DNA from: a virus | DNA: 21,903 nt | Direction: 5' to 3' (one strand) | Virus genome (UHGV): UHGV-0149790 | Shown: one piece after another, positions 1 through 9,372 of the stretch | Layout of the letters: each line of letters begins with the position of its first letter | Numbering within the stretch: position 1 is the first letter of the stretch | Made by a program: the position numbers and the translations under genes | Notes under the pieces: model-generated | Seen by the model: only the letters and a program-made list of their open reading frames with translations | Database searches by the model: none | What the model was told of the DNA's origin: nothing

Positions 1-272
1 TCGCTAAGGCGAACGCTTTTTTCACCTCTGGAATAAATCACGGTGCCGATGTGGGTTTTACGCCTGCGGCCGGAAACCGTAGGGGCGATAATTTCTCGCT
101 TAATCGGTTTTTGCGGGGTGATGCCTGGTACAGGGGCCGGACGTGGCGCCGCTACGAACACGGAACGGCTACGGGCGCGCGCACCGGCATTCATGCGCCA
201 GAGAATAACGGGGAGCCAGTTGCAGCCATCATCCGGTTTTACTGGTTTTGGGTAATTTAAATTCGTGGTCAT
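1..272 (-). CDS. hypothetical protein, 3'-truncated by the window edge (next gene after the helicase in the early-right operon)
   Basis: ATG at 272-270 on the minus strand directly preceded by the recurring GAGGAAAGACC motif; frame stays open to position 1 (MTTNLNYPKPVKPDDG...). Absent from the supplied track because it has no stop inside the window. Confidence 0.4.
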   Translation of the reverse strand, partial: MTTNLNYPKPVKPDDGCNWLPVILWRMNAGARARSRSVFVAAPRPAPVPGITPQKPIKREIIAPTVSGRRRKTHIGTVIYSRGEKSVRLS

Positions 273-310
273 TGGTCTTTCCTCAGTTAAATCGCGCTGG
301 TCAGGCGCGG

Positions 311-2690: not shown

Positions 2691-2912
2691 TCAGATCCCC
2701 AGCGAGTCAGCCAGCTGGCGGCAGGCGATTTCATATTCTTTCTGGGTGAGTCCCGCTTCCTGCAGGTCTGCTTTGCGCAGCTCGTAGCGTTCCCAGATTG
2801 TCAGCGCAGCAGCGCGACGTTCCTCGAAAATCAATTCGATATCTTCTATCGGGACTTGTACCCCGTTCCGGCGAAACCCGTTCCGCCAGGTGATGCGGTC
2901 TTGTGTTCTCAT
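2691..2912 (-). CDS. small hypothetical protein (73 aa) between the CII-like gene and the replication initiator
   Basis: ATG at 2912-2910 preceded by an exact GAGGAAAGACCA motif; stop overlaps the RBS of the O-like gene. The 162-aa track ORF 2691..3179 is an upstream extension that clashes with the CII-like gene. Confidence 0.5.
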   Translation of the reverse strand: MRTQDRITWRNGFRRNGVQVPIEDIELIFEERRAAALTIWERYELRKADLQEAGLTQKEYEIACRQLADSLGI

Positions 2913-2932
2913 TGGTCTTTCCTCGGTACAGG

Positions 2933-3441: not shown

Positions 3442-3636
3442 TTAAGCTGATTTGGCTGGCAGTTGGTAAGCCTTTGGGTCATAAACAAGTTCGCCATCAG
3501 TCATCAGAGACAAACGAGCCGCTTTACCTTCAGGAACCAAACGCCCCCACGCATAGACAGTAGGAGCCTTAACGCCAGCGGCCTCAGCCAGTTTTCTCTT
3601 ACTACCAAAATATTTGATCGCATCAGTTGTTAACAT
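3442..3636 (-). CDS. Cro-like HTH regulator (DicC/YdaS type)
   Basis: 64-aa ORF (YFGSKRKLAEAAGV...LVPEGKAARL...GELVYDPKAY) divergent from the repressor gene; AGGAGG RBS; promoter and operators immediately upstream. Confidence 0.75.
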   Translation of the reverse strand: MLTTDAIKYFGSKRKLAEAAGVKAPTVYAWGRLVPEGKAARLSLMTDGELVYDPKAYQLPAKSA

Positions 3637-3716: not shown

Positions 3717-4103
3717 ATGACAATGCCAGGTGAGCGCATCAGAGCGCGTAGAAAAGATCTCAAACTTACTCAGCGCGCTTTAGCGAAGCTGGTTAACGTC
3801 GCGCACGTCACTATCTCCCAGTGGGAGACCGGTGATAGTGAGCCTGGCGGAAAAAACCTTTTCGCTTTAAGTAACGCACTTCAATGCAGCCCTACCTGGA
3901 TACTTTACGGCGATGAAGCCGCCACTCCGGGAACCCCGGTAGACACCCCGCCGCCATTAGATGAACGAGAAACAGAGCTTTTAAAACTCTTTTCGTCACT
4001 CCCAGAATCTGAAAAAGAGCGGCATTTAACGGAACTTCGCGAAAAAGTAGACGGTTTCAATCGTTTATTTGAGGAGTTACTGCAAGCCCGCAAACAAAAA
4101 TAA
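3717..4103 (+). CDS. short HTH-XRE prophage repressor (DicA-like; no peptidase S24 domain)
   Basis: 128 aa; N-terminal HTH (GERIRARRKDLKLTQRALAKL...ISQWETGDSEPGGKNLFALSNALQCSPTWILYGDE) closely resembles recalled DicA; no Ala-Gly/Ser-Lys autocleavage module; divergent from the Cro-like gene. Confidence 0.85.
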   Translation: MTMPGERIRARRKDLKLTQRALAKLVNVAHVTISQWETGDSEPGGKNLFALSNALQCSPTWILYGDEAATPGTPVDTPPPLDERETELLKLFSSLPESEKERHLTELREKVDGFNRLFEELLQARKQK

Positions 4104-4168: not shown

Positions 4169-4197
4169 TTGACCAAATTGTTAGATTTATCTAAATT
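4169..4197 (+). promoter_or_regulatory. pL-like promoter with an embedded operator
   Basis: -35 TTGACC (4169-4174), 17-bp spacer, -10 TAAATT (4192-4197); third operator copy TTAGATTTATCTAA at 4181-4194 lies in the spacer/-10. Confidence 0.5.
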
Positions 4198-4348
4198 ACA
4201 TCACATCAACGACGCACTAACCACGCGGCAGTTGTTCAGAAACAGTTCTGACAGTCCGGAAAGACGGGCGCGAATTCTTCGGGTCGCCGACAGTACGATG
4301 ACATGCGGGAAAGACCGCAACGAATGCGAATTGCTGTGTGTAGTCTTG

Positions 4349-4373
4349 GCCCGGGCGCCCCGGGCATTTTTTT
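4349..4373 (+). terminator. intrinsic terminator about 150 nt downstream of the pL-like promoter
   Basis: Perfect 7-bp GC stem GCCCGGG-cgc-CCCGGGC (4349-4365) followed by a run of seven T (4367-4373). Confidence 0.7.
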
Positions 4374-4454
4374 AAAGCATTCACGCAGTAACGAGGAAAG
4401 ACCAATGGGGCTGACCACCCTGACAGCCGGGAAAGACCGGCAACCTTCAGGCGT

Positions 4455-4476
4455 AAAAAAGCCCACCGAAGTGGGC
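4455..4476 (-). terminator. intrinsic terminator on the minus strand, convergent with the plus-strand terminator
   Basis: GCCCAC-cgaa-GTGGGC hairpin (4461-4476) flanked by AAAAAA at 4455-4460, i.e. a T-run after the stem when read on the minus strand. Confidence 0.5.
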
Positions 4477-4597
4477 TAATTTACCCGGGACAGTGACCAA
4501 ACCGCCCAGAATGCTACAGGGGACCAACCCTGTAGCGAGGAAAGACCAACGACAGAGCCGCTGATCGGCTCTGAGTATATATCATCAAGGAGTCGCT

Positions 4598-4921
4598 ATG
4601 GAAGCGCTTACCATCCCCGTAACTATTTACGTTATGGCCACAACCAACCCATATCTACCAACGTCTTATCACTCATTCACCTGTGACATGTCACAGCAAT
4701 ACCCTGATCTGTATGTCCTCGTTACTACCAAAACGGTAGAGGTTGCCATTCCAGCTTTAGAGCCAATCGACATTATTGGTATGCAGGTTAATGCCCTTCG
4801 TGCGAAGAAAGAGAAAATCTCTGCCGAAGCAAAGAAGGAGCTGGGTGTTATTGAAGACCAGATTCAGCAGCTGCTGTGCATCGATCACTCTCCAATTGAA
4901 GAAAGCGACGTACCGTTTTAA
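4598..4921 (+). CDS. hypothetical protein, first gene of the left operon
   Basis: 107-aa ORF with AAGGAG RBS 6 nt upstream; acidic and not arginine-rich, so not N-like. Confidence 0.6.
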   Translation: MEALTIPVTIYVMATTNPYLPTSYHSFTCDMSQQYPDLYVLVTTKTVEVAIPALEPIDIIGMQVNALRAKKEKISAEAKKELGVIEDQIQQLLCIDHSPIEESDVPF

Positions 4922-4965
4922 TTAACCGGCGCGTGACCTGCGCCAGTAACCAAGAGGAAAGACCA

Positions 4966-7164
4966 ATGACCATCTACAACGGCTCATTTGAGCCAAAGAA
5001 ATCGGCGATTAAAGACTGCGGCGCCGTGCAGCTGGCGATCGCCATCGATGCGCCAAACAAAAAAGTGGCCGAAAGCATTATGACCGGCAAACTCTGGGAA
5101 TCATACCCGGCCAATGGTGACAACTATTTCAAACCGAAACTGTGGGAACACGTTGAAGGCCAGCCGCTGCCGACCGTTGGCCAGTTCGATGAGTCATTCG
5201 CCCAGCAGCATACTTTTGACGGTGAAAAATGGGTTTCTACTGCGCAGGATAGCGCTTCCGGAAGTGGTGCAGGTTTACCTGCCGACGATGAAGTGATCGA
5301 CCTGATGACCGTTTCCCCTGATGAACGCTTTGCTGCCGTCCTGCTTTTTAGTACCGCGGCGATTGATGGCCATCTTTATTCTCAGGTTGTGGATTATCTG
5401 GATAATCTGAAAAACCACGATGGGGAATTTGAAGAGGAAGATCGCTTTAACTTTAATGTTCTGTGTGCCCTGCAAAATAACTTCCCGGTTCAAAGCATGC
5501 ATGTGGAAGGTCTGAACAATCTTATTCAGGGTATTTTCTCCCACTTTGAAAACCAGACGCCGGGCAAAGCGGCTATCTCTCAGTTCGTTAAACGCTGGCT
5601 TGAGAATCCGGGCAAGCGCGACGAACTGGCCCCCGGCGTATATAAAAATACCGCTCTCAGCACCAGCACCAGCACCAGCACCAGCACCAGCACCAGCACC
5701 AGCACCAGCACCAGCACCGATGATAAAACACCCGTGGTAATTTCTAAGCGCGGATATAAACACACTTATGCAACGCTGGATCAGGAGATCGCTACCGCCC
5801 TTCTCCCGCTGGCGCCTGATGCGCCGGTACTATCCGGAAACCTTCTGGACGCTAAGAAGATGATTTCCGATGACCGGGAAGATTTTAAACGCTGGTCAGC
5901 ATCGCTGCACACCACGCCGCAGATACTCAAATACGACCGCGCCAGCATCTTCGGCGTGGTACAAAACGTACCGGCGAAAGATACCTACCATTTCCCTGAC
6001 AGCCTGCGCCGCCATATCGATTCATGGCTGGCGGCCAACGGCCGCTTTGAGGAAACCGAGACAGGATCCGTTAAACAACCAGAGGCGACGCAAAATACCG
6101 CCTCAAACGTGGGCGAAAAAGTGGAAGCGCAGCAGCCGGTTGTAACCGACACCCAGGCCAAACAGGCGCGTGAGACGCTCAATGATATGGGTTATGGCGT
6201 ATATGCCTCTGGTGAAGGTGCAGAGCCGGAAGAGAAGTTAAGCGTTAAGGCTGAAAAACTGGCTGATGATTCCGAGCGTTTAGCAAAACAAATCGCTCAC
6301 GCTGAAAGCCTGCCTAACGCTGAGGATGTTGTGCAGGCTGTCGGAAAACCAATCATCGGGGAAGACAATTTAGACCTCTGGAAACGCGTATTTAAAACCG
6401 ACGAAAGGTTTACTAAGGCTTTCACACAGAACGGCGGTGGCACCTCGATCAACGGTACCTACATGACCATGCTTGCCACACGTGAGTTTGGCCCTAAGGG
6501 CATCGGCTGGGGCGTGGATATTGTTGAAGAGCGTTTCGATATTGGCGCGCCGATCACTCGGCAAGTAAAAGGCAAAGACAACAACGCATCGTGGGAGCTG
6601 GTTCTTGATGGGAATGGTAATACCGTCAACGAACAGCACCATGTTGTGACTGTCCGGCTCTGGTACATCCTGAACGGAGTACGAGGTGAGGAAACAGCAT
6701 ACGGCTGTACACCCTACATTTACGGTAGTAAATACGGGATCACCTGCGACGGCGAAGCAGCCAAAAAATCACTGACAGATGCGACCAAAAAAGCGTTATC
6801 CGGCCTCGGATTCAGTGGCGATATCTTTATGGGGCTTTACGACAATCTGGAGTACCGCCAGAAGAACAAGGCCGAGTTTGACCTGAAGAACGCCAGCGAA
6901 TCAGCCGAAGATGCAGCACGGCTCCGCCAGGAGTTTGACGATAAATTAAGCCGCGTTGCTAATACCCTGGCGCATGGCGTGACGGTGAACGAAATCAACG
7001 GTGTGTTTTCCCCTATCGCACGTGAGATCGATGTTCACATTAAAGCCGCCCAGGCCAACGGCGACACGCAGCATGAACGTTATCTGTCTGGCCGGCTCCG
7101 CCGACTCATCTCCATCAAAGATGGGCGCATTAAAGAACTGAATAAAGCCGAGGAGAAAGCATAA
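4966..7164 (+). CDS. large recombination protein: N-terminal region of unknown function, (Ser-Thr)10 linker, C-terminal Rad52-like single-strand annealing domain
   Basis: ATG at 4966 preceded by GAGGAAAGACCA; C-terminal motif GCTPYIYGSKYGITCDGEAAKKSLTDATKKALSGLGFSGDIFMGLYD matches the Rad52/Sak signature (K-x-A-V-T-D-x-x-K-R-A-L-x-x-F-G); 733 aa from this start. Confidence 0.7.
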   Translation: MTIYNGSFEPKKSAIKDCGAVQLAIAIDAPNKKVAESIMTGKLWESYPANGDNYFKPKLWEHVEGQPLPTVGQFDESFAQQHTFDGEKWVSTAQDSASGSGAGLPADDEVIDLMTVSPDERFAAVLLFSTAAIDGHLYSQVVDYLDNLKNHDGEFEEEDRFNFNVLCALQNNFPVQSMHVEGLNNLIQGIFSHFENQTPGKAAISQFVKRWLENPGKRDELAPGVYKNTALSTSTSTSTSTSTSTSTSTSTDDKTPVVISKRGYKHTYATLDQEIATALLPLAPDAPVLSGNLLDAKKMISDDREDFKRWSASLHTTPQILKYDRASIFGVVQNVPAKDTYHFPDSLRRHIDSWLAANGRFEETETGSVKQPEATQNTASNVGEKVEAQQPVVTDTQAKQARETLNDMGYGVYASGEGAEPEEKLSVKAEKLADDSERLAKQIAHAESLPNAEDVVQAVGKPIIGEDNLDLWKRVFKTDERFTKAFTQNGGGTSINGTYMTMLATREFGPKGIGWGVDIVEERFDIGAPITRQVKGKDNNASWELVLDGNGNTVNEQHHVVTVRLWYILNGVRGEETAYGCTPYIYGSKYGITCDGEAAKKSLTDATKKALSGLGFSGDIFMGLYDNLEYRQKNKAEFDLKNASESAEDAARLRQEFDDKLSRVANTLAHGVTVNEINGVFSPIAREIDVHIKAAQANGDTQHERYLSGRLRRLISIKDGRIKELNKAEEKA
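5659..5718. repeat. perfect hexanucleotide tandem repeat (AGCACC)x10 encoding (Ser-Thr)10
   Basis: Ten uninterrupted AGCACC units read directly in the sequence, in frame within the 4966..7164 CDS. Confidence 0.95.
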
Positions 7165-7730
7165 TGACTTCCACCACTGCAATTGCTATCGCAGCCGATA
7201 TGTCAAAACTCCAGGCACTACTGGAAAACGAAGACGGTGCTGGTCTGTCTCCTGAAATGATCGCCGACACAATGGAAGGTCTTGAGTTACAACTCGGCGA
7301 TAAACTGGATGCCGTTTTCGTCCACGTTCGCAATCTGGAAGGCCTGGCAAAAACCTGCGATGAAGAGGCCAAACGCCTTGCCGCCCGCAAAAAATCATTC
7401 GAAGGTAAGATCACGAACCTGAAGAAATATGTTCTCCAGTGTCTACTGGCCGCCGGTCAGGATACGGTTAAAACCGCCAAAAATACCTTTACCGCACGTA
7501 AGGGAGCTATAAACGTCGTGATCGATAATGATGAATTACTGCCGGATGAATTAGTGACAGTTCAGACGTTAGTCACTCCGGACAAGAAAGCCATCAAGGA
7601 AGCGATTGAATCAGCACAGGCAGCGGCGGCCCAGATTACCGCTGACGGCGGAGAGATACCGGAAGAACTGTTAAACCCAGTGCCGGGCGCTCACCTTGAG
7701 ATTGGCGAACGTTCGCTGCAGGTGCGCTGA
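7164..7730 (+). CDS. Gam-like / Gp157-family protein (candidate DNA-end-binding accessory)
   Basis: 188 aa; start overlaps the upstream stop (TAATG); N-terminal coiled-coil plus a C-terminal pattern resembling Mu Gam; family call from recall, moderate confidence. Confidence 0.5.
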   Translation: MTSTTAIAIAADMSKLQALLENEDGAGLSPEMIADTMEGLELQLGDKLDAVFVHVRNLEGLAKTCDEEAKRLAARKKSFEGKITNLKKYVLQCLLAAGQDTVKTAKNTFTARKGAINVVIDNDELLPDELVTVQTLVTPDKKAIKEAIESAQAAAAQITADGGEIPEELLNPVPGAHLEIGERSLQVR

Positions 7731-7731
7731 T

Positions 7732-7917
7732 ATGCTGAAACTCACACTGAAACGAGGCGACGCGCTTCACGTCGTTTTTCCGGACGGTACTAACGGGATA
7801 ATCGAAGCCTGCGCGCGTTGTGAACTGGCTATGCATTTTCCGCGCAGTGCCAAAATCACCCGCGAAAATGGCGCGTTCCGGAATAAACCAAACCTGATTA
7901 AGCCTAATCAGAAATAA
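7732..7917 (+). CDS. small beta-rich protein (61 aa), CsrA-like or AbrB/MazE-like N-terminus
   Basis: ATG at 7732, 1 nt after the upstream stop; MLKLTLKRGDALHVV...FPRSAKITREN matches CsrA (MLILTRRVGETL...APKEVSVHREE) in length and pattern, but also resembles swapped-hairpin proteins. Confidence 0.5.
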   Translation: MLKLTLKRGDALHVVFPDGTNGIIEACARCELAMHFPRSAKITRENGAFRNKPNLIKPNQK

Positions 7918-7966
7918 CTCGCAACTGTCGTTAGCATTGTGATCTACCTATGAACCGGAGATCACA

Positions 7967-8191
7967 ATGCTACGTTGGCAACCAGGCACACTTTTACTTT
8001 CAGATTTCGATATCAAAATTGGCAGGCTATCAGCCAGCGTTAGAAAGAGGACTCTGACCCAGTCCGATATCCAACGCGCTTGCGATACGGCAGACAACGC
8101 GATAGCCGGCATGCTGAGGAAAGACCATGAGACACGATCACGACATCATCACCAGAGAGGAAATGATCGAACTGACGGGGACCCCACTTAA
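7967..8191 (+). CDS. hypothetical small basic protein
   Basis: 74-aa ORF whose ATG sits in the 3' arm of an 11-bp perfect inverted repeat; overlaps the excisionase-like ORF in another frame; weak support. Confidence 0.3.
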   Translation: MLRWQPGTLLLSDFDIKIGRLSASVRKRTLTQSDIQRACDTADNAIAGMLRKDHETRSRHHHQRGNDRTDGDPT

Positions 8192-8372
8192 ATCGAGGCA
8201 GTGTGAAGCGCTACGTCGGGCCGGTGTCTTTTTCATGGAAAGGGCAGACGGCCATCCTAAAACGACGTGGGGCCATTTCCTGAACCCGATTAAATACCGC
8301 AACCAGCAGGAAGAGACGGTGCGGGAGGAAGAACCAGACTTCGGAGCTATCTTTAATGGCCGGAAAACGTAA
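8127..8372 (+). CDS. excisionase-like DNA-binding protein
   Basis: 81-aa ORF immediately upstream of and overlapping the integrase start; the ITREEMIELTG...ALRRAGVFF segment fits small winged-helix excisionases; positional support. Confidence 0.5.
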   Translation: MRHDHDIITREEMIELTGTPLKSRQCEALRRAGVFFMERADGHPKTTWGHFLNPIKYRNQQEETVREEEPDFGAIFNGRKT

Positions 8373-9372
8373 GAACCCCGCTGATAACTGGATGCCGCCC
8401 CGCGTGTATCGCGGTAAGGCGGCGTATGAATTCAGGAATAAAGATAACAAGGCTATCAGGCTATGTGCGCTCTCCGAGCCTCAATCAGCTGTATGGCTGG
8501 CATATGAAAAAGCCATGGGAGAAGAAGTCGAGCGCAAGACGTTTCAGGCTCTGGCCGATCAATTCATGTCTTCCCCTGACTGGCAGGATTTAGCGGCAGA
8601 AACCCGAAAAGACTACACGAAATACGCAGGCAAAGTGTTGCCGGTGTTCGGGAAGGTTAACCCCGATAAAATTAAACCGGAACACATCCGGCGCTATATG
8701 GATCAGCGTGGCATGGCCAGTAAAACGCAGGCCAACCGGGAAAAGAGTTTTCTTTCTCGGGTATTCCGCTGGGGTTATGAGCGGGGTTACGTCCAGCATA
8801 ATCCCTGTCAGGGCGTTAAGAAGTTCAAAGAGGCAGCCCGGGAGCGTTACATCACCGACGAAGAATACAAAGCGGTTTACGATGTTGCTCCAGACGTAGT
8901 TCGCGCCACCATGGAAATCGCTTATTTGTGTCTGGCCAGACAAAGCGATGTGCTGGCTTTGACTGAAGACCAGATACGCGAAACCGGGATCTTTATCCGC
9001 CAGGGGAAAACAGGCGTGAAGCAAATCAAAGCATGGTCGCCACGCCTGCGCGCCGCTGTCGCCCTCGCCCGTTCCCTGCCGTTAAAGCCGGGTATCCGTA
9101 GCCTGTTTGTCATTCACCAGACCAGCGGCAGCAAATACACCCGTGACGGTTTTAATTCACGCTGGCGCGACGCGAAAATCGCAGCGCAGGAAAAGAACCC
9201 ACACCTGCAGATAGATTTCACTTTCCACGATCTGAAAGCGAAAGGTGTCTCTGATCTGGAAGGAAGCCTCGAGGAGAAACAGGCGATTTCAGGCCATAAG
9301 AATTCGAGACAAACGGCGATTTACGACAGGAAAACTAAAATTGTGCCGGTTGTTGGTGGTCAGAAAAAATGA
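8356..9372 (+). CDS. int: tyrosine site-specific integrase (lambda Int family)
   Basis: 338 aa; C-terminal catalytic region with HDLKAKGVSD, GHKNSRQTAIY and the terminal Tyr; 3' end faces the att core 120 bp away. Confidence 0.9.
   Translation: MAGKRKNPADNWMPPRVYRGKAAYEFRNKDNKAIRLCALSEPQSAVWLAYEKAMGEEVERKTFQALADQFMSSPDWQDLAAETRKDYTKYAGKVLPVFGKVNPDKIKPEHIRRYMDQRGMASKTQANREKSFLSRVFRWGYERGYVQHNPCQGVKKFKEAARERYITDEEYKAVYDVAPDVVRATMEIAYLCLARQSDVLALTEDQIRETGIFIRQGKTGVKQIKAWSPRLRAAVALARSLPLKPGIRSLFVIHQTSGSKYTRDGFNSRWRDAKIAAQEKNPHLQIDFTFHDLKAKGVSDLEGSLEEKQAISGHKNSRQTAIYDRKTKIVPVVGGQKK

Follow-up and report, generated by a model that had tools for sequence, protein, structure and literature searches.

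A constrained small early protein with weak CsrA resemblance and a family of GGA-containing RNA elements in a temperate lambda-like enterobacterial phage

The window analysed here, UHGV virus genome UHGV-0149790 (21,903 nucleotides, nt), is the genome of a temperate, lambda-like enterobacterial phage, and our study concerns a small open reading frame (ORF) of its early-left operon, hereafter ORF61, together with a recurrent GGA-containing motif at the start of several early genes. A sequence-only reading of this DNA had proposed that the 61-amino acid (aa) product of ORF61 is CsrA-like and a candidate partner of the motif. We show that ORF61 is a genuine, strongly constrained gene. As judged by sequence comparison, its family bears a weak, reproducible and in-register resemblance to CsrA, which appears to be the closest known family; membership of the CsrA family is not established, every score lying below formal thresholds. 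What that reading observed is confirmed, and its interpretation is supported in part. The best-supported new fact is the RNA motif system and not the identity of ORF61.

RNA elements of the early operons

The gene-start motif GAGGAAAGACCAATG is present in four exact copies in the window (Table 1), besides a copy with one mismatch (4537-4551, plus strand) and a copy with a shortened spacer at the excisionase start (8116-8130, plus strand), and none of 100 shuffles reached the observed count. Its core, GGAAAGAC, occurs ten times against an expectation of 0.54; nine of these copies lie in the early region, all nine in the sense of transcription. GAGGAAAGACCAATG also recurs in relatives, and the repeated GGA-containing start region pointed out by the sequence-only reading is confirmed as over-represented, strand-specific and conserved. 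Short GC hairpins with a UGACC loop stand 8-15 nt upstream of gene-start motif copies in both early operons, and such hairpins precede the copies at 270-284 and 2910-2924 (minus strand) as well as that of the exonuclease-like gene. The same hairpin precedes gp05 of Pectobacterium phage ZF40, is found twice in the related locus L086 and loosely resembles the P22 boxB (GCGCUGACAAAGCGC).

The early-left leader (4200-4597, plus strand) holds five GGAAAGAC copies, namely three hairpins with a GAAAGA loop and two start-less motif copies. The copy at 4393-4407 is probably not a real start codon site, because the ORF behind it has just 24 codons and its ATG is ACG in relatives; the copy at 4537-4551 itself ends in ACG and is preceded by a hairpin of the form CUACAGGG-GACCAA-CCCUGUAG. 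A promoter-like site (4169-4197) lies upstream of a terminator-like hairpin, which the leader elements surround. In all relatives whose leader was examined there are 3-7 copies, including cases with no more than 40% identity in the adjacent protein, and nearly all of these leaders have the hairpin at 4426-4441, placed at about -167 relative to the next gene and with compensatory changes in its stem. Across the leader stems such changes include CCGG/CCGG to CCCG/CGGG and CCG/CGG to CUG/CAG. With leader copies that are kept and stems that covary, the GGAAAGAC elements constitute a functional RNA element family. The leader itself may offer several binding sites to a protein, or may be a nut-/put-like antitermination region.

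No Rfam family matched these RNAs at its gathering score, the only matches being sub-threshold ones to RprA, isrB and rsmX. The RprA-like match covers 4274-4375 (E 0.016), and those to isrB (E 0.06) and rsmX (E 0.12) fall on an antisense segment at 4456-4545 (minus strand; folding free energy, dG, -41.3, z -5.4). This segment folds into three hairpins, the last being a terminator-like stem followed by a T run, and could represent an antisense small RNA facing the 4537 motif copy of the leader. The prophage small RNA svsR, which lies inside cI, was considered and is unrelated (PMC12803456).

A further conserved hairpin of 14 base pairs begins 9 nt after the ORF61 stop codon (7926-7979). The following gene has its ATG (7967) in the 3' arm of this hairpin and its GGAG in the loop, and the hairpin is kept in 14 diverged sequences with compensatory changes at 7 of 18 pairs. 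This arrangement suggests that the hairpin gates translation of the 7967 gene and that ribosomes terminating on ORF61 might open it.

ORF61 and its family

ORF61 runs from ATG to TAA and its translation is exactly the 61-aa product that had been proposed. The PHROG 2482 profile matches this product at E 4.2e-34 over residues 1-61 of 61, and this full-length match, together with common synteny and identities of 51-95%, places ORF61 in the family of ZF40 gp05, to which the hypothetical protein WP_023282799.1 also belongs. A search of 5.8 billion clusters found 19 relatives, the family profile matched 16 representatives among 1.84 billion proteins, and all named and traceable relatives come from Enterobacterales. 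The 37 related loci encode 20 distinct proteins of the family, for which the median ratio of nonsynonymous to synonymous polymorphism (pN/pS) is 0.168 across 143 pairs, at a median pS of 0.56, indicating purifying selection. The early 61-aa protein thus holds up by translation, profile match, relatives and low pN/pS alike. It is basic, with a net charge of about +6, and the family conserves a basic C-terminal tail, LIKPNQK. PHROG 2482 is already catalogued with function unknown; in the literature we found no report that deals with ZF40 gp05 or with diverged CsrA-like proteins of phages.

The closest annotated relatives are phages BUCT708 and BUCT709 (81.6% nucleotide identity for both), an Escherichia coli prophage beside tRNA-Leu and phage ZF40, in all of which the ORF61 equivalent occupies the same position and is labelled hypothetical protein. 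At every locus spanning the region the order of the exonuclease-like gene, the Gp157 gene and ORF61 is constant (it was seen in ZF40, BUCT709, the E. coli prophage and metagenomic loci), while the xis/int genes 3' of ORF61 switch type among relatives (DUF4224, Exc, HTH_17). ORF61 is inherited within the exonuclease-Gp157 block of the early-left operon. A single nt separates the TGA of the Gp157 gene from the ATG of ORF61, with the same spacing in most relatives, and the two genes are therefore probably translationally coupled; in the ZF40, L084 and L086 lineages ORF61 is preceded by its own hairpin and Shine-Dalgarno sequence.

Resemblance to CsrA

When ORF61 is aligned without gaps to E. coli CsrA, whose query sequence was verified at 100% identity, 9 of 46 positions are identical (M1, L2, L4, T5, G9, L12, P37, R44 and E45), position 38 is K or R, and positions 40 and 42 are hydrophobic. 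The parallels invoked by the sequence-only reading, i.e. length, N-terminal strand and the segment P-[KR]-x-h-x-h-x-R-E, are therefore literally present. Where β1 of CsrA reads MLILTR, ORF61 reads MLKLTLKR, keeping M1, L2, L4 and T5 and replacing R6 by L and R7 by K. The VHRE/D sequence at 42-45 is the RNA-binding motif of CsrA/Rsm proteins, with H43 and R44 required for binding (PMC9928087). The equivalent residues are I-T-R-E in ORF61 and V-T-R-E in most relatives, R44 being present in at least 90% of members and E45 mostly kept; the homolog of L084 reads T-N-L where the other members read T-R-E. The CsrA-like signature is restricted to β1 (MLKLT..G[DE]) and β4-β5 (hGhxhP..V.h[TH]RE), which are the segments making the RNA-binding edge in CsrA.

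This likeness is reproduced by profile methods at the level of the family. In a Pfam-wide scan of 22 diverse members, PF02599 (CsrA) was the sole recurrent family, matching nine of them with a best E of 0.0092 and scores of 12.7-16.4 bits. In six of the seven matches inspected, protein residues 1-45 aligned in register to model positions 1-45, and the top-scoring match (P0009, 16.4 bits) spans only residues 1-14. None of 75 composition-matched shuffles matched CsrA, their 12 matches falling in 12 different families. A first, narrow CsrA hidden Markov model (HMM), made of proteobacterial and viral sequences, left family members inseparable from shuffles and was replaced by a diverse model of 150 sequences, drawn from genomes (among others of Bacillota, Spirochaetota, Planctomycetota and Legionella), from viral contigs and from PDB-verified sequences. 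Family members reach up to 10.1 bits on this model (median 5.9), against a 99.9th percentile of 5.4 for 3000 shuffles. In the reverse test, the family HMM gave real CsrA sequences a median score of 3.4 bits, in the top 1% of 1000 shuffles (the tenth-highest scored 3.6). HHalign of the family against CsrA returned two separate in-register local matches, at 1-14 (P 0.027) and 30-46 (P 0.0086).

A series of results weighs against taking ORF61 as a CsrA protein. Its Smith-Waterman score against E. coli CsrA is at chance level (z 1.36, with 11% of shuffles as good), BLASTP gave no alignment between the two at E<=100, and scans of the window protein returned no Pfam match at E<=10 and no NCBIfam match. 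No CsrA was retrieved by phmmer and hmmsearch with ORF61 and its family from PDB sequences, nor was any among the 16 matches of the family profile to the 1.84 billion representative proteins. Neither the window protein nor its relatives reach the 27-bit gathering threshold of PF02599, and Pfam-wide E-values of 0.01-0.1 are expected for some family from 1 in 10-100 random queries. With 1.5 bits on the diverse CsrA HMM (about the 97th percentile), the window protein is among the least CsrA-like members of its family; the homology probability given by HHalign is 1.8-4.7%, and the H43 of CsrA is replaced by T in the ORF61 family. Of the proposed CsrA-like identity there remains a weak, recurrent, in-register family signal, with no score at threshold and no signal in the window protein itself. 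A true CsrA-like fold or ancestry for the family is, on balance, doubtful, and still far from negligible.

Predicted structure of ORF61

An AlphaFold2 monomer model of ORF61, made from an 18-sequence alignment, has a predicted local distance difference test score (pLDDT) of 83.8 and consists of five strands (2-6, 11-15, 21-25, 30-34 and 41-45), all paired within one chain, with no helix and with residues 50-61 as a low-confidence tail. In a control, the real CsrA monomer modelled at equal alignment depth gave only β2-β4 and a helix at 44-59, with β1 and β5 unpaired, as expected because CsrA is a swapped dimer. The prediction for ORF61 is thus of a self-contained chain, which CsrA is not; this argues moderately against a CsrA architecture and, coming from a monomer model, is not decisive. 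Pointing the same way, the model lacks the C-terminal helix that follows β5 in CsrA, Foldseek against the PDB gave a best E of 0.6 with no CsrA or AbrB/MazE among the matches listed, and no structural similarity to solved CsrA/RsmE chains was found. A fold search of BFVD gave a best E of 0.05, to an uncharacterised protein; none of the fold-search matches was significant, and those listed include no CsrA or AbrB/MazE structure. SH3_2, which matched 4 of the 22 members in the Pfam scan at E>=0.05, was rejected, no SH3-like structure being among the listed fold-search matches.

The sequence-only reading had suggested structure prediction as the way to tell a CsrA from an AbrB/MazE fold; the model is all-β and matches no solved structure of either kind. 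That ORF61 could be an AbrB/MazE-type swapped-hairpin DNA binder, as its N-terminus had been said to hint, is highly improbable. The resemblance amounts to a superficial N-terminal l-x-l-x-x-GD-x-l-x-v pattern, none of the 22 members matches SpoVT_AbrB in Pfam at E<=10, no helix is predicted, and AlphaFold2 modelling and fold searching brought no structural match.

Relation between ORF61 and the motif

Nothing ties the motif specifically to ORF61. The partnership proposed by the sequence-only reading rests on co-occurrence within one syntenic lineage, which would fit any gene there, and three observations stand against it. Every multi-copy locus belongs to that same lineage, so that whole-module synteny suffices to account for the co-occurrence (two loci, L155 and L108, do not extend to the ORF61 region). 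The gene-start motif reads GAGGCAAGACC in the ZF40 lineage, with GGC, and AGGTATAACC in L084, with GGT; hence GGA is not invariant, the invariant part among lineages being AGG...ACCAATG. ORF61 lies distally in the operon and carries no motif of its own in the window phage. A small point in favour of the partnership is that L084, the only lineage that has lost R44-E45, also lacks GGAAAGAC at gene starts, which is a single case. In this most diverged relative (L084 463-621, minus strand, and 3456, plus strand), AGGTATAACCAATG replaces GAGGAAAGACCAATG at the equivalent gene starts, and the leader retains a single GAAAGA-loop hairpin (2610).

Genome setting

Positions of the genes and RNA elements are collected in Table 1. 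Lysis and tail genes come after the integrase gene, on the minus strand.

Table 1. Genes and RNA elements of the early region and their positions in the window
Feature	Position	Strand	Remarks
Gene-start motif, exact copy of GAGGAAAGACCAATG	270-284	-	start of the gene downstream of the replicative helicase
Gene-start motif, exact copy	2910-2924	-	heads the PHROG 2465 gene (73 aa) of the early-right operon
Cro-like gene	3442-3636	-	
CI-like repressor	3717-4103	+	
Early-left leader	about 4200-4597	+	roughly 400 nt
Leader hairpin	4254-4269	+	loop GAAAGA (GGAAAGAC core)
Leader hairpin	4304-4319	+	loop GAAAGA
Terminator-like hairpin	4349-4372	+	followed by T7 run; inside leader
Motif, exact copy in leader	4393-4407	+	24-codon ORF; ACG for ATG in relatives
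Leader hairpin	4426-4441	+	GCCGG-GAAAGA-CCGGC
Motif, one-mismatch copy in leader	4537-4551	+	ends in ACG, no start codon; hairpin upstream
107-aa gene	4598-4921	+	PHROG 2479
Hairpin	4928-4944	+	GGCGCG-UGACC-UGCGCC; precedes motif at 4954-4968
Gene-start motif, exact copy	4954-4968	+	start of exonuclease-like gene
Exonuclease-like gene	4966-7164	+	732 aa, PHROG 2489; starts at exact motif copy
Gp157 gene	7164-7730	+	Sipho_Gp157 / 'Mu Gam-like end protection'
ORF61	7732-7917	+	61-aa basic protein, predicted all-β
Conserved RNA hairpin	7926-7979	+	9 nt after ORF61 stop; dG -30.3, z -4.3
74-aa gene	7967-8191	+	PHROG 27062, ZF40 gp04; start codon within hairpin
Short-spacer motif variant GAGGAAAGACC	8116-8130	+	excisionase start
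Excisionase gene	8127-8372	+	DUF4224; starts at GAGGAAAGACC-ATG
Tyrosine integrase gene	8356-9372	+	last gene of early-left operon

The gene at 7967-8191 looks spurious when taken alone and overlaps the excisionase start, yet it is real, as its match to PHROG 27062 (E 7e-31) and its correspondence to ZF40 gp04 indicate; it is called in L086 and left unannotated in BUCT709 and the E. coli relative. Inside the exonuclease-like gene, the hexanucleotide CAGCAC forms a perfect tandem repeat of 10.2 copies (5658-5718, plus strand), encoding an (ST)10 linker whose length could vary. OM816835.1 (L001) and OM816834.1 were deposited as Stenotrophomonas phages (BUCT708, BUCT709), an unusual host given that both share 81.6% nucleotide identity and full early-region synteny with the window phage and the E. 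coli prophage.

Discussion

The GGA sites bound by CsrA lie in hairpin loops and across Shine-Dalgarno sequences, and elements of this kind are present in the phage. The likeness of ORF61 to the CsrA/RsmA/RsmE proteins (PF02599) extends to the 61-aa length, the ML-x-LT...G[DE] N-terminus, P37, the hydrophobic residues 40 and 42, R44-E45 and, as far as the model goes, an all-β core; unlike them, it has T43 in place of H, a basic tail instead of a helix, a β3 region that does not align and a predicted self-contained topology. If related at all, a protein without the helix and bearing T43 and the tail would be a new CsrA variant. T4 RegA is a phage repressor of many early genes that binds a sequence shared by their translation initiation regions. 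The parallel with ORF61, whose binding and repression are hypothetical, would be one of concept only, the RegA fold, its 122-aa size and its AU-rich recognition sequence being unrelated and showing no homology. CsrA/Rsm homologues are known from mobile elements and are common on plasmids, RsmQ being a plasmid example (PMC9928087). In the viral contigs that we scanned, canonical csrA was found in at least 364 stretches with 73-96% identity to the E. coli protein (L003-L082, IMG/VR contigs), and the scan with Bacillus subtilis CsrA gave no match. Some of these viral-contig genes have long C-terminal extensions; as a set, the genes may be genuine cargo of phages or may belong to host DNA flanking prophages. 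ORF61 would be a far more diverged CsrA branch than these copies, if it is related at all.

The single mechanism that we consider most probable, and put forward tentatively, is that ORF61 is a small basic RNA-binding regulator, with a CsrA-like edge and a different build, that acts on the phage's early transcripts. The all-β model, the kept R44-E45 and the dense, strand-specific, conserved GGA-containing motif in the same operons count for this proposal. The protein would present a CsrA-like RNA-binding edge, with the LIKPNQK tail standing in for the C-terminal helix, and would act post-transcriptionally on the phage's own early RNAs. Candidate targets, which we infer from the sequence, would be the GGAAAGAC elements, both those in leader hairpin loops and those overlapping Shine-Dalgarno sequences, and perhaps also the hairpin enclosing both the ATG of the 7967 gene and its Shine-Dalgarno sequence. 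It is tempting, and considerably more speculative, to imagine a self-contained Csr-like circuit in these temperate enterobacterial phages, made of a diverged helix-less ORF61, its GGAAAGAC sites and the leader RNA. Such a circuit, which we regard as improbable, would have, in both operons, several early genes whose Shine-Dalgarno sequences are covered by GGAAAGAC sites, and a leader RNA whose 3-7 sites, as hairpin loops and start-less copies, would buffer or titrate ORF61, and it would time early-gene translation and the switch towards the excision and integration genes.

The motif system may equally well owe nothing to ORF61, a reading to which we give about even weight. Under it GGAAAGAC(C) would be read by the 30S subunit, by host CsrA or by Hfq, or would act in cis as a nut-/put-like antitermination or stabiliser element. 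The boxB loops of the lambda and P22 nut sites are GAAAA or GAAGA in lambda. The leader hairpins resemble boxB in their short GC stem, their purine-rich GAAAGA loop and their location just downstream of the early-left promoter, flanking the terminator at 4349-4372. The start-less leader copies could be ribosome or CsrA landing sites, and both the invariance of AGG...ACCAATG instead of GGA and the production of ORF61 last in the operon agree with independence. Unlike a nut system, however, the leader has several hairpins, the hairpin form is restricted to the early-left leader, and the core also appears in gene-start copies of the two operons; the beginning of the operon shows no evident arginine-rich protein of the N type, and no Rfam family reaches threshold. 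A motif read by other factors would, moreover, leave ORF61 without a mechanism.

Two further roles for the protein, both unlikely in our view and neither preferable to the other, need no RNA target. ORF61 could be an accessory subunit of the recombination/end-protection module, made in a fixed ratio with Gp157 by translational coupling, its β domain and LIKPNQK tail docking on Gp157, on the exonuclease-like protein or on DNA ends, and its CsrA likeness being chance or convergence. The gene order that stays invariant while xis/int change type, the single-nt gap between the Gp157 stop and the ATG that most relatives share, the conservation of a tail predicted to be disordered and the confident, compact monomer model all suit this role. 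Such guilt by association is weakened by the frequent occurrence of unrelated small cargo ORFs at module borders, by the loss of coupling in the ZF40, L084 and L086 lineages and by the lack of any known recombination accessory with the ORF61 fold among the fold-search matches. The other role is that of a host-directed modulator, binding a host cell-cycle, defence or stress factor. In lambda the small ORFs between exo and xis (orf60a, orf61, orf63, orf73, ea22 and ea8.5) include modulators of host physiology and of the lysis-lysogeny choice. ORF61 occupies the same early-left position, from the recombination genes to xis-int, and is likewise small, restricted to Enterobacterales prophages, of unknown function in PHROGs and furnished with a conserved terminal peptide. 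On the other hand, the characterised lambda examples are helical or zinc-binding, whereas ORF61 is predicted to be all-β. No sequence relationship to them was detected, and no homology to a known exo-xis ORF or anti-defence protein was found, PADLOC (defence proteins) not having been scanned; the strong basic charge would also better suit nucleic-acid binding.

If the weak CsrA signal is true, ORF61 would be a much more diverged CsrA-type protein with dedicated RNA sites in the early programme of a phage, resembling the translational regulon of T4 RegA on a CsrA-like scaffold. If the signal is chance, ORF61 would add to the conserved small early proteins encoded where the recombination genes border on xis. 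Whatever ORF61 is, the GGAAAGAC family is well supported and still awaits an explanation, with its covarying hairpins, its start-less copies and its initiation regions of 15 identical nt; these elements are conserved while neighbouring proteins drift to 40% identity, and they merit direct study.
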